Notes: generated by a model not told the origin, from the sequence alone. DNA of 64,000 bases from an uncultured Thermoplasmata archaeon (GCA_963696985.1 CAVOMG010000001.1:455807-519806); one strand, 5' to 3'; positions 3,201 through 34,060 are shown, numbered from the stretch's first letter. Translations and numbers: made by a program.

Positions 3201-4498
3201 CCCGGCGCTCGACGTGCCGGTCGGGGCCGCGGTCGACTATTTCGCGAACGCCACCGGCCCGGACGGCCCGTACCTGCTCCACTGGACCCTCGGTCCGAAC
3301 GGGTCGGCGTTCGGCTCGCGGACCTCCTCGACGTACCCCTACCTCGTTTGCGCGAGCCCGCCCTCCTGCTCGCTCTCGATCGGGCTCGGCGCCGAGGACG
3401 GGAACCACCGTTGGCTCAATGTGACGTTCCCGCTCGATCCGGCCCAGCTCGGGAACGCGACCGCGCTCGGTCTATCGGTGCGCGCCTCGACGACCCGCGG
3501 GGCGACCCCGTTCGTCTTCCGGGGGATCGCCGACACCGTCGGGATGGGCTCGGTCTCGGTCGCTTGGACGTTCGGCGACGGCAGCACGGGCCCGGGCGAA
3601 TACGGGAACCACACCTACCTGACGCCGGGGAACTACACGGTGACGGCCGTCGCCACGGACCCGTACGGGGACCGCCTCATCCAGGATCTCGCGCTCGTCG
3701 TGACCGGAGTGCAGCGGTACTCGCCGACCGTGGCCGCCAGCTCGAACGTGACGAACGGGCTCGCTCCGCTCTCGGTGGGTTTCCAAGCGGCCGCCTCGGG
3801 TGGGGCGGGCGGACCGTTTGAGTTCACCTGGTCGTTCGGGGACGGGAAGATCGCCGCGGGGGCCTCGGTCTCGCACACCTACGGGAGCGCCGGCGAATTC
3901 ATCGCGAGCGCTACCGCGACCGACCGGCTGGGTGACCCCGCGAGCTTCGCCCTCGCGATCGACGTGTACGGCTCCACCTCGCTGGGACTCTCGGTCGCCG
4001 GCCTCCCGGAGTCGGTCGCCCCGGGAGCTTCGCTTCCGCTCTCGGTCCACGAGTCCGCGGCGTGCGGCGCCCAATCGGTCCCGAACTGCACGAGCGCCCG
4101 GATCCCGTTCCGGACCCTGGTCGAGGCGGCGGGGGTCCCACCGCCCTCGAACGGGTCGATCGCCGGTTCGGGCCATCCGATGGGCGCCTCGGGGTATTCG
4201 AACTTCACCCTGATCGCGCCCAACTCCGCCGGGAAGTACGTCCTCTACCTGTGGGCGAACGGATCCGGTTTCGTGGGGAGCGCCCGCACCCCGTTCACCG
4301 TCCTCAACGGCACCTCGCCGGTCGAGACCCAGCACACGCCCGGGGTCCCGTACCAGGTACTACGCGGGGATCGCGGGCGCCGCGGCGGTCGCGGCCGTCG
4401 GGATCCTGCTCGTCGTGCGGAGGCGGCGCCGGGGGCCGAAGGCCCCCGCTATCCCTTCACGACGCCGAGCGGGCGAAGGCGGGCGACGCGCCGGGTGA
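269..4498 (+). CDS. Secreted, C-terminally anchored S53 (sedolisin/kumamolisin) peptidase with a stalk of PKD/Ig-like domains; two frameshifts (~2545, ~4357)
   Basis: Signal peptide and prodomain; catalytic EEALD, SGDCG and GGSSLSSP; Ca site GWDPVTGLGSP; five (I/Y/W)xFGDG PKD motifs across ORFs 269..2728 and 2563..4545. A shifted frame from 4358 gives YYAGIAGAAAVAAVGILLVVRRRRRG, a TM helix with a basic tail, and stops at 4496-4498. Confidence 0.85.
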
Positions 4499-5906
4499 GC
4501 CCGGCGCCCTCGGCGACCCGGACCACCTCCTCGACGTCCTTGTAGGCGCCGGGGGCTTCCTCGGTGACCCCCTCGCGCGAGGCGGCGCGGACCACGATCC
4601 CCTGCTCCGAGAGCCGTCGGGTGACCTCCTCGTAGCGGAACTTGCGGACCGCGGCGTGGCGGGAGAGAAGTCGACCGGCCCCGTGGCACGAGGAGCCGAA
4701 CGAGCGCTCGAGCGAGGTGGGGAGTCCGACGAGCACGTAGCTCGCCGTGCCCATGTCACCGGGAATGAGGACGGGTTGACCGAAGCGCCGATACCGCTCG
4801 GGGACCTCCTCGCGCCCCGCGGGGAACGCCCGGGTCGCGCCCTTACGGTGGACGAGCACGCGCCGAGGCGCGCCGTCGACGCGGTGCTCTTCGAGCTTCG
4901 CGATGTTGTGGGCGATGTCGTAGATGACCTCGATCCCGGCCGGGTCTGGGTCGAGGACCGAGGTGAACGCTCGCCGGACCCCTTCGGTGATCAGCTGGCG
5001 GTTCGCCCAGGCGAAGTTCGCTCCCGCGGCCATGGCGGCGAGGTAGCGCTTCCCCCGCTCCGAGGCGATCGGCGCGCAGGAGAGCTGCCGATCCACGAGC
5101 GCGACCCCGTCGGCGAGGAGCGCCTGGTCCATCTCGTGGATGAAATCGGTCGCGATCTGGTGGCCGAGGCCGCGCGAACCGGTGTGGAGCATCACGACGA
5201 CGTGGCCTTGCTCTAGGCCGAGCGCCCCGGCGATGGTCGGTTCGAGCAGGGTGTCGACCGATTGGATCTCGAGGAAGTGGTTCCCCGAGCCGAGCGTGCC
5301 GAGCTGTCGGTGGCCGCGCTTCTTCGCGACCTCACTGACCGCGGCCGGATCCGCCCCCGCGAGGGCGCCCTGCTCCTCTTGGAACTCGAGGTCCTCGCGC
5401 CGACCGTGTCCGCGCTCCACGGCCCAGCGGGCGCCGCCGGCGAGCACCTCCTCGATCTCGGAGGGGTTGAGATTGAGCCCACCCTTCGAGCCGACCCCCG
5501 TCGGGACCTCCCGATAGAGCGCGTCGACGAGGGCCCGGAGCTTCCCCACGATCTGTTCCTTGCGGAACGGCGTGCGGAGCAGGCGGACCCCGCAGTTGAT
5601 GTCGTAGCCGATCCCGCCCGGCGAGACGACCCCCTCGTCGAGGTCGAAGGCGGCGACGCCGCCGACCGGGAAGCCGTAGCCGAAGTGGATGTCGGGCATC
5701 GCGTAGGCGCGCTCGCAGATCCCCGGGAGGGTCGCGACGTTCTTCAACTGCTGGAGCGACGGGTCCCCCTGGGCGGCCTCGAGGAGCGGAGCGCTCGTGT
5801 AGAGCCGGCCGGGGACGCGCATCCCCTCCGATTCGGAGCGGGGGATCTCGTAGGTGAACTCGTCGATGCGGACGAGGGTGGGCCCTTCCGGCACGCCGCG
5901 CGCCAT
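4449..5906 (-). CDS. rtcB: RNA-splicing ligase RtcB
   Basis: MPDIHFGYGFPVGG, GYDINCGVRL, LGTLGSGNHFLE, HRKGATRAF and HGAGR motifs; 485 aa. Confidence 0.97.
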   Translation of the reverse strand: MARGVPEGPTLVRIDEFTYEIPRSESEGMRVPGRLYTSAPLLEAAQGDPSLQQLKNVATLPGICERAYAMPDIHFGYGFPVGGVAAFDLDEGVVSPGGIGYDINCGVRLLRTPFRKEQIVGKLRALVDALYREVPTGVGSKGGLNLNPSEIEEVLAGGARWAVERGHGRREDLEFQEEQGALAGADPAAVSEVAKKRGHRQLGTLGSGNHFLEIQSVDTLLEPTIAGALGLEQGHVVVMLHTGSRGLGHQIATDFIHEMDQALLADGVALVDRQLSCAPIASERGKRYLAAMAAGANFAWANRQLITEGVRRAFTSVLDPDPAGIEVIYDIAHNIAKLEEHRVDGAPRRVLVHRKGATRAFPAGREEVPERYRRFGQPVLIPGDMGTASYVLVGLPTSLERSFGSSCHGAGRLLSRHAAVRKFRYEEVTRRLSEQGIVVRAASREGVTEEAPGAYKDVEEVVRVAEGAGLTRRVARLRPLGVVKG

Positions 5907-5988: not shown

Positions 5989-6330
5989 ATGATCGTCCGG
6001 ACCGCCCTGCTCGTCGTCTACGCGGTCGTCCTCGCGGTCGCCCTGCTCGTCCAGTTCCTCTACCCGGCGCTCGGTGGCCTTGTCTTCTACGGGCTCCTCT
6101 TCTGGCTCGTGGCGAGCTTCTTCCTCTTCCGGTTGCCCGGGATGGGAAGGCCGGTCCCGGGGAGCGGCTCCTCGAAGACTCCGTCGCCGCCGCCCCCATC
6201 ATCGGGCGGGTCGGCCCCCCTTCCTTCCGGACCTCCGGTGCAGCTCGAGTTCTGTGCCTACTGCGGGACCCAGCTCGCGGCCGGGGCTTCCCAGTGCCCG
6301 GCGTGTGGCCACCCGGTCCGCGCGTTCTAG
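5989..6330 (+). CDS. Small membrane protein: 2 TM helices, Pro-rich linker, C-terminal double-CxxC zinc ribbon
   Basis: ATG at 5989; MIVRTALLVVYAVVLAVALLVQF...CAYCGTQLAAGASQCPACG. Confidence 0.75.
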   Translation: MIVRTALLVVYAVVLAVALLVQFLYPALGGLVFYGLLFWLVASFFLFRLPGMGRPVPGSGSSKTPSPPPPSSGGSAPLPSGPPVQLEFCAYCGTQLAAGASQCPACGHPVRAF

Positions 6331-6893
6331 CGACCGGGGCCGCCCGCGGGGTCGTCCGCGACGACGCGCAGCATGATCTCGCGGCCTTTGACGTTGCTCC
6401 CGGGAGAGACGTGGAGGTCCCGCACGACGCCCGCCCGGGGGCTCACGATCTCATTGCGCATCTTCATCGCCTCCAGGACGAGCAAGAGGGCCCCGGCCGC
6501 CACGCGCTCGCCTTCGCGCACCCGGACCTCGATGACCCGACCGGGCATCGGCGGGACGATGGCGTCCTCACGGACGGATCCCGTGGAGGTTGGGACCGCC
6601 GGCACCGTCGGGGCGGTCCGTTCCGGCAACCCGATCGCGCCCGATCCCGCCTCGACGCGGACCGAGAGGCGGAACCGTTCCCCTTCGACCGTCACGGGGT
6701 GAGTGGGGTTCGCCTCATCCGACGGCCACCCGGCGACCTTCACTCGCTCGCCGGCGATCTCGAGCTCGACCGAGTCCCGGTCCCGGGCGACGACCTTCAC
6801 GGGGTAGGTCGAGCCCCCGACGGTCACGATGCCGAGCGCGAGGTCGACCTCGACCTCTCGATGTTCACCGTCGATTTCGAGCGTGACCTTCAC
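6327..6893 (-). CDS. Biotin carboxyl carrier protein (1.3S-like) with an N-terminal BT-like domain
   Basis: GTG at 6893: VKVTLEIDGEHREVEVDL; biotinylation motif EAMKM and PMPGRV. Confidence 0.9.
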   Translation of the reverse strand: MKVTLEIDGEHREVEVDLALGIVTVGGSTYPVKVVARDRDSVELEIAGERVKVAGWPSDEANPTHPVTVEGERFRLSVRVEAGSGAIGLPERTAPTVPAVPTSTGSVREDAIVPPMPGRVIEVRVREGERVAAGALLLVLEAMKMRNEIVSPRAGVVRDLHVSPGSNVKGREIMLRVVADDPAGGPGR

Positions 6894-8396
6894 GAACGAT
6901 ACCTCCCTGGTGGTGCAGGCGGCTTCGTCCCTCGAGCGACCAGGCGAGCCGATCCGGGGGGGCGGCCCGAGCGACCGGGGTGGAAGGGGACGGGCCGATC
7001 GGGATCGAACGAAGCGCGCCGACGACCCCGAGCCCCGCGGAGGTGAGCGTGTCCCAGCCGAGCCCGCGCGCCCGGGCCTTCTGGTACGACTCGAACACCA
7101 TGGGGAAGAGGGCGTAGGAGAGCGCCTCGGCCCGGTCCGCCGACGGCACGAGCGCCCGGACGGCATCGATCGCCTTCGTGAGCTCGGGGGGAGACGATCG
7201 GACGGTCGGCCCGTGACCGCCGGGTCGACCGAGAGGACCCGCTTCGCGAGCTCCGGGTCGATCGGTCCCGGGGCCGCTCCATAGACCCCGCGGACATAGT
7301 CGCGGACCTCGCGGGTGATCTCCCGGTACCGGGTTCCGGTGAGCACGTTGAGGACCGCCTGGATCCCGACGATCTGGCTCGTCGGGGTGACGAGCGGGGG
7401 GTAGCCGAGATCGGCGCGGACCCGCGGGATCTCGGCGAGGACCTCGGCGAGGCGCCCGATCGCGTCCTGCTCCTGGAGCTGGCTCAGGAGGTTCGAGAGC
7501 ATCCCGCCCGGGACCTGGTGGACGAGGATCCCGGGGTCGGTCATCAACGACCGCGGATTGAGGAGGGGCCGGTAGTGCTCGAGGACCCCCGAAAAGTACT
7601 CAGCGATCTCGGCGAGGGCACCGAGGTCGAGCTTCGGGTCGAGCGCCGTCGATCGCATCGCGCCGACGAGGGTCTCGGTGGGCGGCTGGCTGGCCCCGCC
7701 CGAGAACGGGGAGATCGCCGCGTCGACCGCGGTCGCGCCGGCATCGGCGGCGGCGAGGCAGCTCAGCGTGGCCATGCCGCTCGCGGAGTGGGTGTGGAGT
7801 ACGACGGGCAGGCCGACCTCCCGCACGAGCGCTCGGGTGAGAGAGGACGCGTCGCCCGGCGGGAGGAATCCGGCCATGTCCTTGATGCAGAGCTCGTCGG
7901 CCCCGAGCTCCGCGAGGCGCCGCCCGAGGGCGACGAACGCCTCGAGGGTGTGGACCGGCGAGTGGGTGTAGCAGATCGTTCCCTGGGCGGTGGCGCCGGC
8001 GCGCTTCACGGCGCGCAGGGCGCTCTCCATGTTCGCGGGGTCGTTCAAGGCGTCGAAGACCCGGAAGATGTCGACCCCGGTACGAGCGGCCTGCTCGACG
8101 AACGCCTCGACGAGGTCGTCGGCGTACGGCCGGTACCCGACGAGGTTCTGCCCGCGCAGGAGCATCTGGAGCGGGGTCCTCGGCATCGCCTTCTTGAGCA
8201 GGCGCAGCCGCTCCCATGGGTCCTCCTTGAGGTAACGTAGGCAAACGTCGAACGTCGCCCCGCCCCAGACCTCGAGGGATCGGTAGCCGATCGCGTCGAG
8301 CCGCTCGGCGATCGGGAGCATGTGGCGGGTGCGCATCCGGGTCGCGATCAGCGATTGGTGGGCGTCCCGGAGGACCGTCTCGGTGATGCCGACCAT
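6865..8396 (-). CDS. Pyruvate/oxaloacetate carboxyltransferase (transcarboxylase 5S / PycB / OadA-type catalytic domain) with no fused biotin domain; frameshift ~7188
   Basis: RDAHQSL, WGGATFD, RGQNLVGY, CIKDMAG, HTH and PLVTPTSQIVG motifs. One missing base in a G6 run joins it to ORF 6865..7149 (EALSYALFP...AWSLEGRSRLH). Confidence 0.9.
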
Positions 8397-8415
8397 CGCT
8401 CGCCTGGGCCCCTCG

Positions 8416-9965
8416 TCAGAGCGGGAGGTTCCCGTGCTTGCGCGCCGGCCGGTCCTCGCGCTTCGGCTTGAGGGTGGCGAGCCCCGCGAGGAGCCGCGCC
8501 CGGGTCTCGGCCGGGTCGATCACGGCATCGACGTAGCCGCGCTCGGCCGCGAGGTAGGGGTTGAGGAACTCGGCCCGGTACTCGTCGACGAGGCGCTGAC
8601 GCACCGCCTCCCGGTCCGGACCCTCCGACTTCGCGAGCTCGCGACGGAAAAGAACGTTCACCGCCCCTTCGGCCCCCATGACGGCGATCTCCGCGGTCGG
8701 CCAAGCGTAGTTGAGGTCCCCGCCGAGGTGCTTCGAGCACATCACCACGTACGCCCCGCCGTACGCCTTGCGGAGGATCACGGTGAGCTTCGGCACGGTC
8801 GCCTCGGCGAAGGCGTAGAGGAGCTTCGCCCCGTGCCGGATGATCCCGCCATGCTCCTCCTGGGTCCCCGGGAGGAACCCCGGCACGTCGACGAACGTCA
8901 GGATCGGGAAGTTGAAGGCATCGAGGAACCGCACGAACCTCGCCCCCTTCGTCGAGGCCGAGATGTCGAGGCATCCGGCGAGGTGGTTCGGCTGGTTCGC
9001 CACGACCCCGACGGCCTCCCCGTCGAGGCGGGCGAACTCCGTGACGAGGTTCGGCGCGAACGACGGCTGGATCTCGAGCGTGCTCCTCGGGTCGACGATC
9101 CGCTCGATCACGTCGTGGACATCGTAGGGCGCGTTCGCCTCCGCCGGGACGACCGCGGTGAGGCCGGACGCGGCGTCCTTCGCGGGCGGCACACCGGCGA
9201 TCGCCGGGGGGTCCTCGAGGTTGTTGAGCGGGAGGTAGCCCAAGAGCCGGCGCGCGAGGGCAATCGCCGACTCGTCGGAGTCGGCGGTCAGGTGGGAGAC
9301 CCCGCTCTTCGTGGCGTGCGCGTCGGCGCCCCCGAGCGCTTCGGCGCTGACCTCCTCCCCGGTGACCGCCCGGATGACGTCGGGCCCGGTGATGTACATC
9401 TCTCCGGTCCCCCGCCGCATGATCACGAAGTCGGTGATCGCCGGGGAGTAGACCGCCCCGCCGGCGCAGGCGCCAAGGATCAGGGAGATCTGGGGGACGA
9501 CCCCGGAAAGGGTGACGTTGCGGAAGAAGACCTCGCCGTACCCCGCGAGGCTCATCACGCCCTCCTGGATGCGGGCCCCCCGGAGTCGTTCAATCCGACG
9601 ATCGGGATCCCCGACCGGTGCGCGAGCGCCATGGCGCGGACGATCTTCTCGGCGTGCGCTTCACCGAGCGCCCCTCCGAAGACGGTGCTGTCCTGGGCGA
9701 ACGCGGCCACGCGCCGCCCCTCGACCTCCCCGAACCCGACGACCACCCCATCGCCGGCGATCCTCCGTTCGGAGAGCCCGAAGGCCGTCGCCCGGTGGGT
9801 CACGAGCTCACCGAGCTCGCAGAACGTCCCGGGATCGAAGAGCGCCTCGAGCCGGGCCCGGACCCCGAGCTTGCCGGCGTCGGACTGCCGCTTCGTCCGC
9901 TCCGCCCCGCCGCCCTCGCGGGCCCCGGCGAGGCGGGCTCGCCATACCTCGTACGGGTCGGTCAA
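8416..9965 (-). CDS. Acyl-CoA carboxyltransferase (PccB / transcarboxylase 12S-like); frameshift ~9578
   Basis: GDGVVVG, DSGG(A)RIQEG after repairing a C6 run, GACAGGAVYSPA, FVDVPGFLPG, RKAYGGAY and HGNLPL. Confidence 0.92.
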
Positions 9966-10711
9966 GCGATCCCCTCGACCTCGATCTCGCCGGAACGGAT
10001 GCTCTCGATCCCCGATTCGCCCTCGACGAGCAGCGCCCCGTCCTCGGCGAGGTCGCGGAGGACCCCGGCGGTCCGCCCGTCGACCCGAACCCTCCGCCCC
10101 ACCCCGTAGAGCGCTCCCCGCGCCATCGACCAGACCTCCGACCGACCCGCGACGGTGCCGAGGCGATCTACGGTGGTTCGAATCACTTCCGTGACCAACG
10201 GCTCCAGTTCATCGGGCGACACGGCTCGCCCCGCGAGCTCCTGGAGGATGGCGACCCGCGGGGCGAGCTCCTCGGGGAGGTCGGAGCGCGCGGTCGAGAC
10301 GTTCACGCCGACGCCGACGACGAGCGCGACCCCCAGGGCGGGGGAGAGGACCCGGTCGACGAGCACCCCGGCGAGCTTTCCGAACGAACCGTCGCCGTTC
10401 CGTGCAAAGAGGTCGTTCGGCCACTTGACGGCCGTCTCGAGAGCGTAGCGCCCGGCGAGCATGCCGGCGAGCCCCGCGCCGACGCCGACCGGAACGAGGC
10501 CCGGCTCGAGGCGGGGTTCGGGGGTCACCACAGAGAGGTAGAGGCCACCCTCGGGCGAGGCCCAGGAATGGTCGAGGCGCCCGCGGCCCCGGTGCTGCCG
10601 CCGGGCGACCACCACGAGGCCGGCCGGGGCTCCATCGCGCGCCCGCCGGACCGCCTCATCTTGCGTCGAGGGAAGGAGGTCGAAGCAGAGGCGCTCGGCC
10701 ATGGGGAGCAT
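9962..10711 (-). CDS. birA: Biotin-protein ligase (no HTH domain)
   Basis: STQDEA, QHRGRGRLDHSWASPEGG, VKWPND, KLAGVL and GVGVNV. Confidence 0.92.
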   Translation of the reverse strand: MLPMAERLCFDLLPSTQDEAVRRARDGAPAGLVVVARRQHRGRGRLDHSWASPEGGLYLSVVTPEPRLEPGLVPVGVGAGLAGMLAGRYALETAVKWPNDLFARNGDGSFGKLAGVLVDRVLSPALGVALVVGVGVNVSTARSDLPEELAPRVAILQELAGRAVSPDELEPLVTEVIRTTVDRLGTVAGRSEVWSMARGALYGVGRRVRVDGRTAGVLRDLAEDGALLVEGESGIESIRSGEIEVEGIA

Positions 10712-10794: not shown

Positions 10795-11794
10795 TCAGGG
10801 ACGCCAAGGCGGGTAGGTCGGCACCGCGGTCGCCGGGAACCCGCCGGGGCGGGGCGGCGCGGCGAGCCAGGTGGTGTAGGCGCTCCGTAACTGCCAGAAC
10901 CCGTAGAGGAGCACCAACGGCGACACGAGCCCGAGCAGGCTCCCGAACGGGACGAAGAAGCCCGTGACGCTGAGGACGGAGAGGACGGCCCCGACGAGGA
11001 TGAACGATCGGGCGGAGGTCGCCACGGCCTTCACGGGTTCGGGGGCGATGGGGAGAAGGCCCCCGACCAAGCCGGAGGTTGCGAACCAGTAGGTCAGCAG
11101 GTTGAACACGACCGAGGCGAAGGCGACCGCCACGGCCAGGCCGACGACCGAATTGGCGACCGACTTGGCGATGGCGGTGGTATTGTTGCCCGTGCCGGCT
11201 CCCAGTCCTCCGGCGATCGCCGACAAGATGAAGGCGAAGACGATCACCACGGTCGCGATGATCCCGAAGATGAAGATCAGCGTAGTGTAGAGCCAGTCCC
11301 TTGAAGCGCGCTCGGCGGCTTGCGCGGCGGCGGGGCCGTACCTCCCCGGCCGACTCTGCGAGCCGTTTGGAGCCGGTCCGCCACGTCACCCACGAAAGGA
11401 TCAGGAGGATGAACGCCACGAGCGCGAGGAGCCCGCTGGCCGCCAAGACCGCCAGGGCGGCACCCCCGCCGAGCCCGAGGCCCCCCGCACCGCCGGCGCC
11501 CAACGATCCGGAGAGCGGTCCCGCCGAAGAGATGCTGACCGCTCCGAGGACGGCGGCGCTGATGAGAGCGCCCACGAGCGTGAGGATCAGGTAGACGACG
11601 TACCAATTGATCGCCCGTTGGAGCTCGCTCACGGCCTGCCGGGTCCTTTCGCCCGGGGGCGAGGCGGGGAACCCGCCGTACCATCCCGCCCAGCCGGGCG
11701 GCGGCGGGCCGTACCCGATGGGCGGTGGGGGCGGCGCCGGGGCATAGACGACCCCGGAAGGAAGCGGGGAGGGAGCCGTTGGGGGAGCGTCCAT
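10795..11794 (-). CDS. Multi-pass membrane protein with Pro-rich termini; frameshift ~11341
   Basis: N-terminus PAPPPPPIGYGPPPP followed by several hydrophobic helices. Removing one G joins it to ORF 10795..11250. Confidence 0.65.
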
Positions 11795-12238: not shown

Positions 12239-12681
12239 CTAAGCGCGCGCGAGCGCGCGCATCCGGCCGACCATCTTCACGACGGCCCGAACGGCGTTCG
12301 CCGCGTTCTCGATACGGTCCTGGGCCTGGAGGCGCGTCTCGCCGGGCCGGAGATCCCGAGGCCGACCGGCTTATGGTACTGGACCATGAGATCGGCGAGC
12401 TTGCGCGCGGCCTGGCCCATCACGACCTCGTCGTGGTCGGTCTCCCCCTCGATGACCGCGCCGAGCGTCACCACGGCGTCGATCCCCGGGCGCGCGAGGA
12501 GCGCATCGACGGCGAGCGGCATGTCGAAGACGCCGGGGGTCTTCACGAGGGGACCCGCCTGCGCCCCGAGGAACTCGAGCTCCTCGCGGGCCCGCTCGAC
12601 CATCAAGTAGGTCACGTCGTAGTTGAACTCGCTCGCCACCAGGGCCACCGTCATCCCTTCGCCTTCCCGCTTCTTCGCCAT
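12239..12681 (-). CDS. ribH: 6,7-dimethyl-8-ribityllumazine synthase; frameshift ~12345
   Basis: VASEFNYDVT, PGVFDMP and LGAVIEGETDHDEVV. The repaired C-terminus GPGETRLQAQDRIENAANAVRAVVKMV stops at 12239. Confidence 0.93.
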
Positions 12682-12740
12682 CGTGTTCCTTCCCTATCGA
12701 ACTCTTGCGCTCGTGATCTGATCCTCGGCGACCTTCCCGC

Positions 12741-13635
<895 letters not shown>

Positions 13636-13648
<13 letters not shown>

Positions 13649-14364
13649 CGTTCAAATGCCTCGAGGATGTGGGCCCCTTCGACGAACGGCCAGCCGTGAT
13701 CGCTCGAGTACCTTCGGGCCGCGTCGACGGATCGCGCGCCTCCGGAGTCCCCGAGCATCTCGCAAACGGTCGCCGACTCGGGGAGGGAACCCATCCGGGC
13801 GAGCGAGATGGCGAGCTCCGTATGGCCTTTTCGTTCTTCGAGGAGCTTCGGCGCCGCGTAGAGGAGCGGGACATGGCCCGGGGAGCGGAACTCCTCGCGG
13901 AAGCGCGCCTGGAGCTCGGCCGGCGGGCGAGTCCGGGCGTCGAGCGCGAGCTCCCCGATCGCCCGAATCGTCGTCGCGCGGTCGCGGTCGGGGATCCCGG
14001 TGTAGTTCGTCCGATGGTTCACCGTGATCCCGAAGGCGCTCCTACGGTCGTAGCGGGGCGGCGGGGCGCCGATCGCCCCTAGCACGGGGTAGCGGGCGGC
14101 GCCGAGCGCGAGAAGCTCAGAGAAGAACGGGAGCCCGAGCTTCTCCTTGAGCTCGGAGGAGATCGCCGTGCAGATGAGGCCACCCGCGTCGGTGCGCAAG
14201 AGCCGGACGAGCTCCGGGGTGGCGAGGTGGGAGAGGATGACGAGGTCGGTCTCCCCCTCGCGGTCGGCCGCATCGAAGATGAGGACCGGTTCGCCGTGGG
14301 CGAGCGCCGAGAGCGCCTGGTCGACCTCGCGCGACCGCCCCGATGTCGACGGGACCCGCATCAT
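13636..14364 (-). CDS. ribB: 3,4-dihydroxy-2-butanone-4-phosphate synthase (archaeal type)
   Basis: DAADREGETDL, DAGGLIC, SAFGITVNHR, TGIPDRDRA, FRSPGHV, RKGHTEL and CEML. Confidence 0.95.
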
Positions 14365-14496: not shown

Positions 14497-15965
<1,469 letters not shown>

Positions 15966-32344: not shown

Positions 32345-34060
32345 ATGTCGGCGAGCCGGACGCTCCCGGGCCGCAGCCCCTCGGAGCGCGCGCCCTCCCG
32401 GTCGCGCGAGGGCCCTGTCGAGGCGGCTCGGAAGCGCTGGGAAGCCGAGGTCGAGCGCCCCGCCCTTGTCCGCGCGCCCGAGCGGCGGAATCCGTTCGAA
32501 TCCCTCGGCGGGATCCCGATCGACCGGCTGTACACCCCGCGCCCGGGCGCACCGAGGGCGGAGGAGTACCCGGGTCAGTACCCGTACACGCGGGGGATCC
32601 ATCCGACGATGTACCGGGGGAGGGTGTGGTCGATGCGGATGTTCTCCGGGTTCGGGACCCCCGAGGACACCAACGCCCGGTTCCGCTACCTCCTCAAGCA
32701 CGGGGAGTCCGGACTCTCGATCGCGTTCGACGACCCGACGCTCTACGGGATCGACGCCGACGACCCGGAGGCGCTCGGCGAGGTCGGGAAGTGCGGGGTG
32801 AACGTCTCCGGTCTCCCGGACATGGAGCGGCTCCTTCGGGGGATCCCGCTCAAGGACGTCACCACGAGCATGACGATCAACGGCCCCGCGAACATCGTCT
32901 GGGGGATGTACCTCCTGACGGCGGAGGCGGGCGGGACGCCCTGGGCCGAGCTCGGCGGCACGACCCAGAACGACATCCTGAAGGAGTACATTGCCCAGAA
33001 GGAGTTCCTCTATCCACCGAAGGCGGCCCTGCGGCTCGTCACCGACACCATCGAGTTCGCGACCCGGTCCACCCCGCGATGGAACCCGGTCTCGATCTCG
33101 GGCTACCACATCCGGGAGGCGGGCTCGACGGCGGTCCAGGAGCTCGCCTTCACGCTCGCCGACGGGATGACGTACGTCGAGGAGGCGATCCGTCGGGGCG
33201 TGCCCGTGGACGCGTTCGCGCCGCGCCTCTCGTTCTTCTTCAACTCCCACAACGACTTCTTCGAGGAGATCGCGAAGTTCCGCGCCGCGCGACGGCTGTG
33301 GGCCGAGACGATGCGCGATCGCTTCCACGCGCGCAAGCCGCGTTCCTTGTGGATGCGCTTCCATACGCAGACCGCCGGGTGCTCCTGCACCGCGCAGCAG
33401 CCCGAGCTCAACATCGTGCGGACGACCGTCCAGGCGCTCGCCGGGGTGCTCGGCGGGACCCAGAGCTTGCACACGAACTCCTACGACGAGGCGATCCAGC
33501 TGCCGTCCGAGGACGCCGTCCGAATCGCCTTGCGGACCCAGCAGATCCTCGCCTGCGAGAGCGGCGTCGCCGAGACGGCGGACCCGTTCGGCGGGAGCTA
33601 CTTTGTCGAGTGGCTCACCGACAAGATGGAGGAGGAGGCCCGACGATACTTCGAGCGCATCGACGAGATGGGGGGCGTGGTCGCCGGGATCGAGCGTGGG
33701 TTCTTCCAACGCGAGATCCAGGAGGCCTCCTTCCGCTACCAACGGGCGGTCGAGGCCGGGACCCAGAAGGTCGTCGGCGTCAACGCCTACACCCTCGACG
33801 TTCCGATCGAGGTCCCCCGGCTCAAGATCTCCGAAGAGGCGCGCCGGCACCAGTCCCGCCGTCTGCGCGCCCTGCGGTCGCGCCGGTCGGCCCGCCGTCA
33901 CGCGGCGGCCCTGGAGGCGCTCGCGAAGGTCGCCCGAACGGAATCCGAGAACACGATGCCGGCCGTCCTCGACGCCCTCCGGGCCCGGGCCACGCTCGGG
34001 GAGATCGTGCACACGTTCCAGTCGGTCTTCGGTACCTATCGAGAGCGCTCGATGTACTGA
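32345..34060 (+). CDS. B12-dependent acyl-CoA mutase large subunit (stand-alone), isobutyryl-CoA-mutase-type active site
   Basis: PYTRGIHPTMY, RMFSGFG, QNDILKEYIAQKE, SGYHIREAG, LHTNSYDEA and DPFGGSY; no B12-binding DxHxxG domain. Confidence 0.93.
   Translation: MSASRTLPGRSPSERAPSRSREGPVEAARKRWEAEVERPALVRAPERRNPFESLGGIPIDRLYTPRPGAPRAEEYPGQYPYTRGIHPTMYRGRVWSMRMFSGFGTPEDTNARFRYLLKHGESGLSIAFDDPTLYGIDADDPEALGEVGKCGVNVSGLPDMERLLRGIPLKDVTTSMTINGPANIVWGMYLLTAEAGGTPWAELGGTTQNDILKEYIAQKEFLYPPKAALRLVTDTIEFATRSTPRWNPVSISGYHIREAGSTAVQELAFTLADGMTYVEEAIRRGVPVDAFAPRLSFFFNSHNDFFEEIAKFRAARRLWAETMRDRFHARKPRSLWMRFHTQTAGCSCTAQQPELNIVRTTVQALAGVLGGTQSLHTNSYDEAIQLPSEDAVRIALRTQQILACESGVAETADPFGGSYFVEWLTDKMEEEARRYFERIDEMGGVVAGIERGFFQREIQEASFRYQRAVEAGTQKVVGVNAYTLDVPIEVPRLKISEEARRHQSRRLRALRSRRSARRHAAALEALAKVARTESENTMPAVLDALRARATLGEIVHTFQSVFGTYRERSMY

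Follow-up and report, generated by a model that had tools for sequence, protein, structure and literature searches.

A compact 12S–5S–carrier operon of an uncultured Thermoplasmata archaeon is a probable ATP-independent biotin transcarboxylase

The window analysed here is a 64,000-nucleotide stretch of DNA from an uncultured Thermoplasmata archaeon (GCA_963696985.1 CAVOMG010000001.1:455807-519806; G000:C1:455807-519806 in our numbering), and our subject is a biotin operon within it that combines a biotin-protein ligase, two carboxyltransferases and a biotin carrier. The source genome (G000) is an assembly of 2.13 Mb in 3 contigs with an estimated completeness of 75.7%, and the guanine-plus-cytosine (GC) content of the window is 70%. 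An initial annotation, made from the sequence of the window, had described four close-packed genes at this place. Domain searches and open reading frames (ORFs) bear out their identities and positions and place them in one orientation, as follows.

9962-10711, minus strand: BirA, 249 aa, Pfam BPL_LplA_LipB and BPL_C; the first gene of the operon
8416-9965, minus strand: 12S carboxyltransferase (PccB/MmdA/12S family), Pfam Carboxyl_trans, in two pieces
6865-8396, minus strand: 5S carboxyltransferase (PycB/OadA type), Pfam HMGL-like and PYC_OADA, in two frames
6327-6893, minus strand: BCCP (biotin carboxyl carrier protein), a separate biotin carrier of 188 aa, Pfam Biotin_lipoyl, with an EAMKM motif

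The start of 12S abuts the stop of BirA, a gap of 19 nt separates 12S from 5S, and 5S and BCCP overlap by 29 nt. The 12S–5S–BCCP core is kept in 30/30 related Thermoplasmata loci, with 5S identities of 69-82%; these loci come from metagenome-assembled genomes (MAGs) of soil, peat or sediment, one of them labelled Candidatus Lutacidiplasmatales. BirA lies upstream of 12S in all 27 loci that extend far enough and is directly adjacent in 26, while the contigs of L054, L060 and L062 end before the BirA position. At L057 (G002:C6, 4864-6427), about 1.5 kb separate BirA from 12S, the two genes abutting in the other 26 loci. The next-closest 5S homologues (at most 62% identity) have a biotin carboxylase (PycA) or OadB as their neighbour or, in methanogens, stand alone.

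Sequence analysis revealed that BirA scores 107.5 bits against TIGR00121, exceeding the cut-off of 83.1, and is a class-I biotin-protein ligase without a helix-turn-helix domain, its biotin loop reading GRGRLDHSW. The 12S gene, intact in relatives at 516 aa, is here made up of two ORFs (9555-9965 and 8416-9558) that cover positions 2-104 and 114-493 of the Carboxyl_trans profile (PF01039), and its product has the character of the crotonase-fold acyl-CoA carboxyltransferase that forms the 12S subunit of transcarboxylase. It is the sole Carboxyl_trans gene of the genome, and each congener likewise has one. Among family models, it reaches 746 bits against TIGR01117 mmdA, which is under the cut-off; against Protein Data Bank (PDB) chains it scores 665 bits with 1VRG, 647-650 bits with Streptomyces coelicolor PccB and 577 bits with the transcarboxylase 12S subunit 1ON3.

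The 5S protein of relatives is encoded by a single gene of 509-512 aa without a fused biotinyl domain. It combines a TIM barrel (PF00682) with a PYC_OADA domain (PF02436), carries the metal and carbamyl-lysine site, and has no fused biotin carboxylase. The PYC_OADA match spans profile positions 1-173 in the intact relative L034 and is cut in the window by a frame break at profile position 125 of 201. When aligned with the transcarboxylase 5S structure 1RQB, the archaeal 5S keeps the catalytic residues, that is, RDxHQ, KDM with the carbamyl-lysine, and HxH; the pyruvate-site residues are also conserved in the alignment with transcarboxylase 5S and OadA. The protein scores 646 bits against NCBIfam NF006761 PycB, a 'pyruvate carboxylase subunit B' domain model that matches both 5S and the carrier, and is above the cut-off there, whereas its 624 bits against TIGR01108 oadA are under the cut-off. 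Against PDB chains it reaches 480 bits with OadA (2NX9), 474 with PycB (5KS8) and 394 with the transcarboxylase 5S subunit (1RQB).

The carrier gene has a GTG start codon and, 7 nt upstream of it, GGAGGT; its initial 29 nt (6865-6893) overlap the end of 5S, BCCP being in the +1 frame. This split and overlap are kept in 6/7 relatives examined (loci L030-L036), namely those with an intact BCCP, in which the carrier measures 179-192 aa; in L035, a long-read assembly, BCCP is broken. We also weighed a programmed +1 frameshift that would join 5S to BCCP and rejected it, since nothing beyond the overlap speaks for it and a Shine-Dalgarno sequence and a start codon are present. Two separate, translationally coupled genes are the simpler reading. 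The carrier consists of an all-beta N-terminal domain (residues 1-80), a Pro/Ala linker and the biotinyl domain, with the following landmarks.

6462-6464, minus strand: codon AAG of the biotinyl-lysine K144 (EAMKM motif), a column invariant in 23 sequences
6654-6893, minus strand: N-terminal all-beta domain, residues 1-80, modelled by AlphaFold2 (AF2) with nine strands at a predicted local distance difference test score (pLDDT) of 88-92

The biotinyl domain thus has the (E/A)MKM lysine of biotin carriers. In a profile built from 23 relatives of the carrier, positions 18-171 align with 556-719 of the human propionyl-CoA carboxylase (PCC) alpha subunit, and positions 22-176 with 516-677 of 3N6R. 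The best Foldseek matches are chains of PCC/MCC alpha comprising the BT (biotin carboxylase–carboxyltransferase interaction) domain and the BCCP domain, with E values of 4e-10 to 1e-8 over about 190 aligned columns; their TM scores are low because the two domains are oriented differently. A weak Pfam PCC_BT match (E 0.034) falls on the carrier N-terminus. From profile and model, the N-terminal domain is predicted to be the barrel of a BT domain, minus its central helix.

The genome has no biotinyl domain besides that of BCCP; its two remaining Biotin_lipoyl matches are lipoyl domains, belonging to E2 (TDKA) and GcvH. We infer that both carboxyltransferases share this one carrier, because no other biotinyl domain is encoded. 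BirA accordingly has a single client, which reaches only two catalytic partners, both of them carboxyltransferases. Outside the window, the biotin transporter BioY is encoded at G000:C1:169831-170305; BioY was found in only 1/18 congeners searched.

We then compared the genome with 24 congeners and with 6 genomes of two sister families in the same order (31 genomes for the order in total). Neither a biotin carboxylase nor an OadB/MmdB membrane subunit had been seen in the window by the initial annotation, which proposed to look for accC/pycA and oadB/mmdB genome-wide as the observation that could speak against its reading. The absence stands for the window and extends to the 2.13-Mb genome, where that search returned none of these genes, and to the genus, except for a biotin carboxylase in 1/24 congeners. 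Biotin_carb_C (PF02785) gave 0 matches in the genome. CPSase_L_D2 (PF02786) gave two strong matches there, which are the two halves of carB, and a weak third one (G000:C3:307268), considered as a hidden biotin carboxylase, is succinyl-CoA synthetase beta beside its alpha subunit. A tblastn search of the genome with a genuine archaeal biotin carboxylase returned carB only, at 21-22% identity. Among the congeners, Biotin_carb_C was matched in 1/24 (G016), and those free of biotin carboxylase include 90-99% complete MAGs (G001, G002, G004, G005, G007, G011, G017, G022) and assemblies of 2-10 contigs. The same detection was positive in 13/14 control genomes. OAD_beta (PF03977) had 0 matches in the genome, the 24 congeners and the 6 further genomes of the order (0/31), while the controls Thermotoga maritima and Bacteroides thetaiotaomicron were positive. 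The class-level relatives G031 and G039 carry OadA beside OadB.

The partners of a methylmalonyl-CoA pathway are encoded outside the operon, one of them about 22 kb away in the window.

32345-34060, plus strand: methylmalonyl-CoA mutase large subunit, Pfam MM_CoA_mutase, 700 bits

Every congener has two copies of this mutase. The second copy of the genome adjoins methylmalonyl-CoA epimerase (G000:C3:423932-425769), which scores at or near the equivalog cut-off, and succinyl-CoA synthetase is present as well. Across the genus, 12S is found in 25/25 genomes, 5S in 22/25, the mutase in 25/25 and the epimerase, above or near its cut-off, in 18/19 searched. In the two sister families, 12S, 5S and epimerase are found in 0/6 genomes and the mutase in 1/6 (G028). 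The operon thus shares its phyletic pattern with the mutase and the epimerase, and the enzyme set reads as a methylmalonyl-CoA pathway in which a predicted transcarboxylase replaces propionyl-CoA carboxylase. Sheridan et al. (2022; PMC9287336) described the lineage as an aerobic or facultative heterotroph degrading fatty acids and amino acids; their reconstruction of the order took 12S as propionyl-CoA carboxylase and mentions neither transcarboxylase nor biotin.

The operon is the only biotin enzyme of the lineage. It probably encodes a soluble, ATP-independent biotin transcarboxylase, namely a methylmalonyl-CoA:pyruvate carboxyltransferase (EC 2.1.3.1-like), because biotin carboxylase and beta subunit are missing, the carboxyltransferases and carrier are the sole such set, and the operon co-occurs with mutase and epimerase. 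The proposal of the initial annotation, an archaeal transcarboxylase that links methylmalonyl-CoA and pyruvate independently of ATP, is in this way supported by genomics, through its parts and motifs as well as the absences and the pathway partners. We propose a putative model for the reaction. Initially, the carrier would receive biotin at K144 from BirA. The swinging biotinyl domain would take a carboxyl group from oxaloacetate at the TIM-barrel site of 5S, leaving pyruvate, and pass it to propionyl-CoA at the 12S hexamer to yield (S)-methylmalonyl-CoA; the reverse direction would also be possible. Epimerase and B12 mutase would then yield succinyl-CoA, from which succinyl-CoA synthetase, SdhABE and the rest of the tricarboxylic acid cycle would regenerate oxaloacetate. 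The net effect would be the conversion of propionyl-CoA from odd-chain and branched substrates to pyruvate without ATP cost, a scheme as in syntrophic propionate oxidisers. We somewhat favour the oxidative direction (propionyl-CoA and oxaloacetate to methylmalonyl-CoA and pyruvate) over the fermentative Wood-Werkman direction, because it is the direction of use to a heterotroph, aerobic or facultative, that breaks down fatty acids and amino acids, as the lineage is described.

Beyond its catalytic domain, 5S carries a C-terminal tail composed, in this order, of a helix, a disordered Pro/Ala linker and a WAHEGR motif.

7009-7053, minus strand: small-hydrophobic helix of the 5S C-terminal tail, DTLTSAGLGVVGALR, conserved in 25 relatives, with the Pro/Ala linker next
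6925-6942, minus strand: W-x-x-EGR motif near the 5S C-terminus, WSLEGR here and WAHEGR in most relatives

The consensus of the helix in relatives is DVLTAAALGVVGALRA, and the AF2 model of a relative's 5S shows a helix at residues 448-463 (pLDDT of the block 70-81), pLDDT falling below 50 from residue 474 on. Across the aligned tails of 25 relatives, W486, G490 and R491 do not vary. The W-x-x-EGR motif lies upstream of both the BCCP start and its Shine-Dalgarno sequence. The last ~10 Arg-rich residues of 5S are probably shaped by the N-terminal codons of BCCP, and QRRW by the Shine-Dalgarno sequence. A precedent is the two-subunit pyruvate carboxylase of Methylobacillus flagellatus, whose BT-like barrel, made by beta subunits, is filled by a hydrophobic helix of the alpha subunit that is rich in alanine; deletion of this helix abolishes the holoenzyme (PMC5059739). 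By analogy, the BT-like barrel of the archaeal carrier would act as a tether, as in propionyl-CoA carboxylase, and the C-terminal helix of 5S may fill this barrel in trans. 5S and the carrier may thus be held together by a helix-in-barrel tether, and the two would correspond to a PycB-like chain of carboxyltransferase (CT), BT and BCCP domains that is split within the BT domain.

The closest characterised counterpart in layout is the transcarboxylase of Propionibacterium freudenreichii subsp. shermanii (EC 2.1.3.1; 12S, 5S and 1.3S; 1ON3, 1RQB, 1DCZ). Both systems have two carboxyltransferases, one of crotonase fold and one TIM barrel, with one separate carrier; both are without biotin carboxylase or membrane subunit, share the 5S catalytic residues, and are linked to mutase and epimerase. 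The likeness drawn by the initial annotation therefore holds for architecture and fails for orthology, given the separate 5S clade described below, the lower score against 1RQB and a carrier of a different kind, with a BT-like domain. This failure lowers the case for one family by descent and leaves unaffected the case that the archaeal enzyme works like that of Propionibacterium; in its architecture it would be a transcarboxylase, though not one descended from the bacterial enzyme. The archaeal carrier has 188 aa and a BT-like beta-barrel, in contrast to 1.3S, which we take to be 123 aa with a short N-terminal assembly peptide. Further differences from the Propionibacterium system are the helix–linker–motif tail of 5S, the BirA gene within the operon and the archaeal host.

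In a quick maximum-likelihood (ML) tree, the lineage's 5S sequences form one clade with a Shimodaira-Hasegawa-like approximate likelihood ratio (SH-aLRT) support of 100 and a stem of 0.54, every member being 12S-linked; the clade is also apart from PycB/OadA of other Thermoplasmata, and the deep nodes of this tree, supported by SH-aLRT only, do not fix its placement. In a class-level relative of 3.7 Mb (L013/L121, G032:C37), 5S also adjoins a 12S. The quick tree places the 5S of G032 among OadB-linked bacterial sequences, the biotin carboxylase of this genome lies on another contig, and its 12S and 5S may be a separately acquired set.

The operon also shares features with three other kinds of biotin enzymes. 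With propionyl-CoA carboxylase (PccA/PccB; 3N6R, 7YBU, 1XNY) and the archaeal AccC-AccB-PccB form it has in common a full-length PccB-type 12S and a BT–BCCP carrier. It differs from these propionyl-CoA and acyl-CoA carboxylases in that the genome encodes no biotin carboxylase domain or subunit and the neighbouring slot is taken by 5S; in addition, the archaeal barrel is without a central helix of its own, unlike the BT domain of PCC alpha. The two-subunit pyruvate carboxylases (PycA/PycB; M. flagellatus, 5KS8) resemble it in that 5S is 55-62% identical to PycB proteins, and the domain order CT, BT/PT-like, BCCP of PycB is matched by 5S and the carrier taken together. In contrast to PycAB, there is neither a PycA partner nor a single-chain PycB, 5S and the carrier being separate genes with a 29-nt overlap that are paired with 12S. 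The Na+-translocating decarboxylases OadABG and MmdABCDE have homologous alpha-type subunits (TIGR01108 and TIGR01117, both under cut-off), whereas the beta subunit (PF03977) of the Na+-pumping Oad/Mmd/Gcd enzymes is missing here and both carboxyltransferase types are set around one carrier. Transcarboxylase-type gene sets of Asgard archaea, a different phylum, and of syntrophic propionate oxidisers are likened to the operon by gene content alone.

Several observations weigh against the transcarboxylase reading. For either carboxyltransferase, sequence similarity does not tell a transcarboxylase version from that of a carboxylase or a decarboxylase, and 12S scores higher against PccB/MmdA-type chains, and 5S against OadA/PycB, than against the Propionibacterium subunits. 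In the quick tree, the Propionibacterium 5S groups with Vibrio OadA and bacterial PycB, apart from the lineage's 5S. The acyl-CoA substrate of 12S is not certain because the position corresponding to residue 422 of S. coelicolor PccB is Val in this protein; that position is presumably an acyl-CoA specificity site, with Asp in the propionyl-specific enzyme and a hydrophobic residue where acetyl-CoA is also taken. As for the tether, AF2 modelled the carrier barrel confidently without any helix. The genome itself is estimated at only 75.7% complete. Finally, the congener G016 carries a 12S–biotin carboxylase–BCCP operon (L007, G016:C76:400-3720). This MAG is 62% complete in 240 contigs and has no 5S; the operon lies on a contig of 5.1 kb with 65% GC, compared with 69-75% in the genus, and its carrier also has an N-terminal extension. 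The G016 operon is either a mis-binned contig or a carboxylase variant arising by a natural swap of the middle gene. The G016 biotin carboxylase was also considered as a supplier for the other genomes and rejected, being part of a separate operon in a MAG without 5S.

These points bear unequally on the alternatives. An ATP-independent shuttle with other substrates, that is, acetyl-CoA/malonyl-CoA or butyryl-CoA at 12S and another 2-oxoacid at 5S (2-oxoglutarate, compare the CfiB type), appears unlikely. The Val at the PccB-422 position would suit it, as the aligned 3IAV and 1XNW, which we take to be engineered D422 variants of relaxed specificity, carry Val and Ile, and the long-stemmed separate 5S clade would fit a functional shift; yet the operon follows the phyletic pattern of mutase and epimerase, which need methylmalonyl-CoA, the pyruvate-site residues are conserved relative to transcarboxylase 5S and OadA, and a malonyl-CoA consumer is not expected in an archaeon, no search having been made for one. 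That the genes are instead parts of a conventional ATP-dependent propionyl-CoA and/or pyruvate carboxylase, whose biotin carboxylase was missed or is too divergent, is very improbable. The order is annotated so in the literature (Sheridan et al., PMC9287336), 5S exceeds the 'pyruvate carboxylase subunit B' cut-off, the carrier has the BT–BCCP layout of PCC alpha, and G016 offers an actual 12S–biotin carboxylase–BCCP operon. Set against this, biotin carboxylase is easily detected (13/14 controls) yet missing in 24/25 genomes of the genus, including 93-99% complete MAGs and assemblies of 2-7 contigs; tblastn returns carB only, and the slot that biotin carboxylase occupies in the G016 and PycAB operons is filled here by 5S or 12S. 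A decarboxylase of oxaloacetate and/or methylmalonyl-CoA, with an unrecognised membrane partner or of a non-energy-conserving kind, is hardly to be expected at all. The best family and PDB matches do include MmdA and OadA, and a membrane protein gene (10795-11794, minus strand) lies just upstream of BirA. We rejected this gene as a pump or membrane anchor, since it has no Pfam match and, of about 37 related loci, only L034, L036 and L043 have it beside BirA. Known biotin decarboxylases, the Oad/Mmd pumps, need the beta subunit to decarboxylate carboxybiotin, OAD_beta is found in 0/31 genomes of the order, and two different carboxyltransferases around one carrier would be needless in a decarboxylase.

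A further alternative concerns the state of the genes in this genome, as 12S and 5S are each interrupted by a frame break, a feature that the initial annotation did not record.

9576-9581, minus strand: G6 run at the 12S frame break, inside the conserved NDSGGARIQEG motif
7186-7191, minus strand: C6 run at the 5S frame break, just past RPSDRLPP

If these frameshifts were real, 12S and 5S would be pseudogenes of an operon that decays here and works in relatives, and two frame breaks do fall within 3 kb of otherwise conserved coding sequence. We consider such decay improbable. In DNA alignments with three relatives, the window is one column short exactly at the G6 and C6 runs, so that both breaks are single-base gaps in G/C homopolymers; the 12S and 5S fragments show no further lesions and are still 84-88% identical in amino acids to the closest relative, and both genes are intact in seven congeneric loci. 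Many unrelated genes of the assembly are split likewise, among them the upstream membrane protein, the E2 lipoyl protein (G000:C3:30683 onward) and BioY. Among the related loci, breaks occur only in long-read 'MFD ... contig_' assemblies (L039, L042, L044, L064) and in the 2-contig G007, at other positions, whereas the short-read MAGs have no breaks in these genes. Because the gaps against relatives are of one base, other genes are split and the breaks are confined to long-read assemblies, both are very likely homopolymer deletion errors of long-read assembly, not pseudogenisation. The split genes suggest that the 3-contig assembly carries pervasive indel errors, and these may explain its low completeness estimate. 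Anyone annotating this genome should take into account that homopolymer indels split its genes. A Viterbi segmentation based on GC content at third codon positions (GC3) recovered the frame changes of the operon, and elsewhere frameshifts were not separable from gene boundaries by it alone. The 689-aa ORF at 6327-8396, which could be mistaken for an OadA-like fusion of 5S and BCCP, was rejected as a gene, its middle being out of frame and relatives having two genes.

To our knowledge, transcarboxylase has been characterised only from propionibacteria, and a literature search that paired transcarboxylase with Thermoplasmata or with archaea turned up none characterised from an archaeon. An earlier, genome-based proposal of such an enzyme in archaea exists, since a transcarboxylase-associated biotin ligase and carrier were inferred in Asgard archaea (Imachi et al., 2020; PMC7015854), while Thermoplasmatales were said to seem without biotin-dependent carboxylases (PMC6138646). 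More tentatively, the lineage might have built its transcarboxylase independently of bacteria, from a PccB-type core, a PycB-derived carboxyltransferase and a BT-barrel carrier, with the BT domain split between genes (helix and 'hook' on 5S, barrel on the carrier) and a helix-in-barrel tether, as an entry point for propionyl-CoA. An archaeal transcarboxylase-type operon is in itself unsurprising; the module swap and the split BT domain are the points of specialist interest. If this scenario holds, the holoenzyme would have an architecture unlike the 26S complex of Propionibacterium, and the sole biotin enzyme, not a propionyl-CoA carboxylase, would admit propionyl-CoA to central metabolism in these abundant acid-soil archaea.

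Should the operon act as a transcarboxylase, an ATP-free carboxyl shuttle would take the place of the 'propionyl-CoA carboxylase' step in the published metabolism of Lutacidiplasmatales. Lutacidiplasmatales are widespread in acid soil and peat, and a different energy and CO2 balance would have to be assumed when they metabolise propionate, odd-chain fatty acids and branched amino acids. In this clade, the automatic label 'pyruvate carboxylase subunit B' would be a misannotation of 5S, so that its anaplerosis must differ. The subunit layout, a BT-barrel carrier with a helix-tailed 5S, would be a natural experiment in module swapping around a common carboxyltransferase core. The operon would furthermore offer a compact four-gene module of ATP-independent carboxyl transfer for engineering.

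The surroundings of the operon in the window hold several other genes. A complete archaeal 16S rRNA gene lies at 14498-15965 on the minus strand (Rfam RF01959, 1483 bits) and accounts for a dip in GC to 0.61 at 14-16 kb; within the 2.6-kb stretch searched around it there is no 23S gene. From ORF translations alone, the interval 12277-14364 on the minus strand contains a candidate run of genes for riboflavin and flavin adenine dinucleotide (FAD), comprising lumazine synthase, archaeal riboflavin synthase, a RibL-like FAD synthetase and DHBP synthase, and, likewise from its ORF translation alone, a candidate RtcB is located at 4449-5906.

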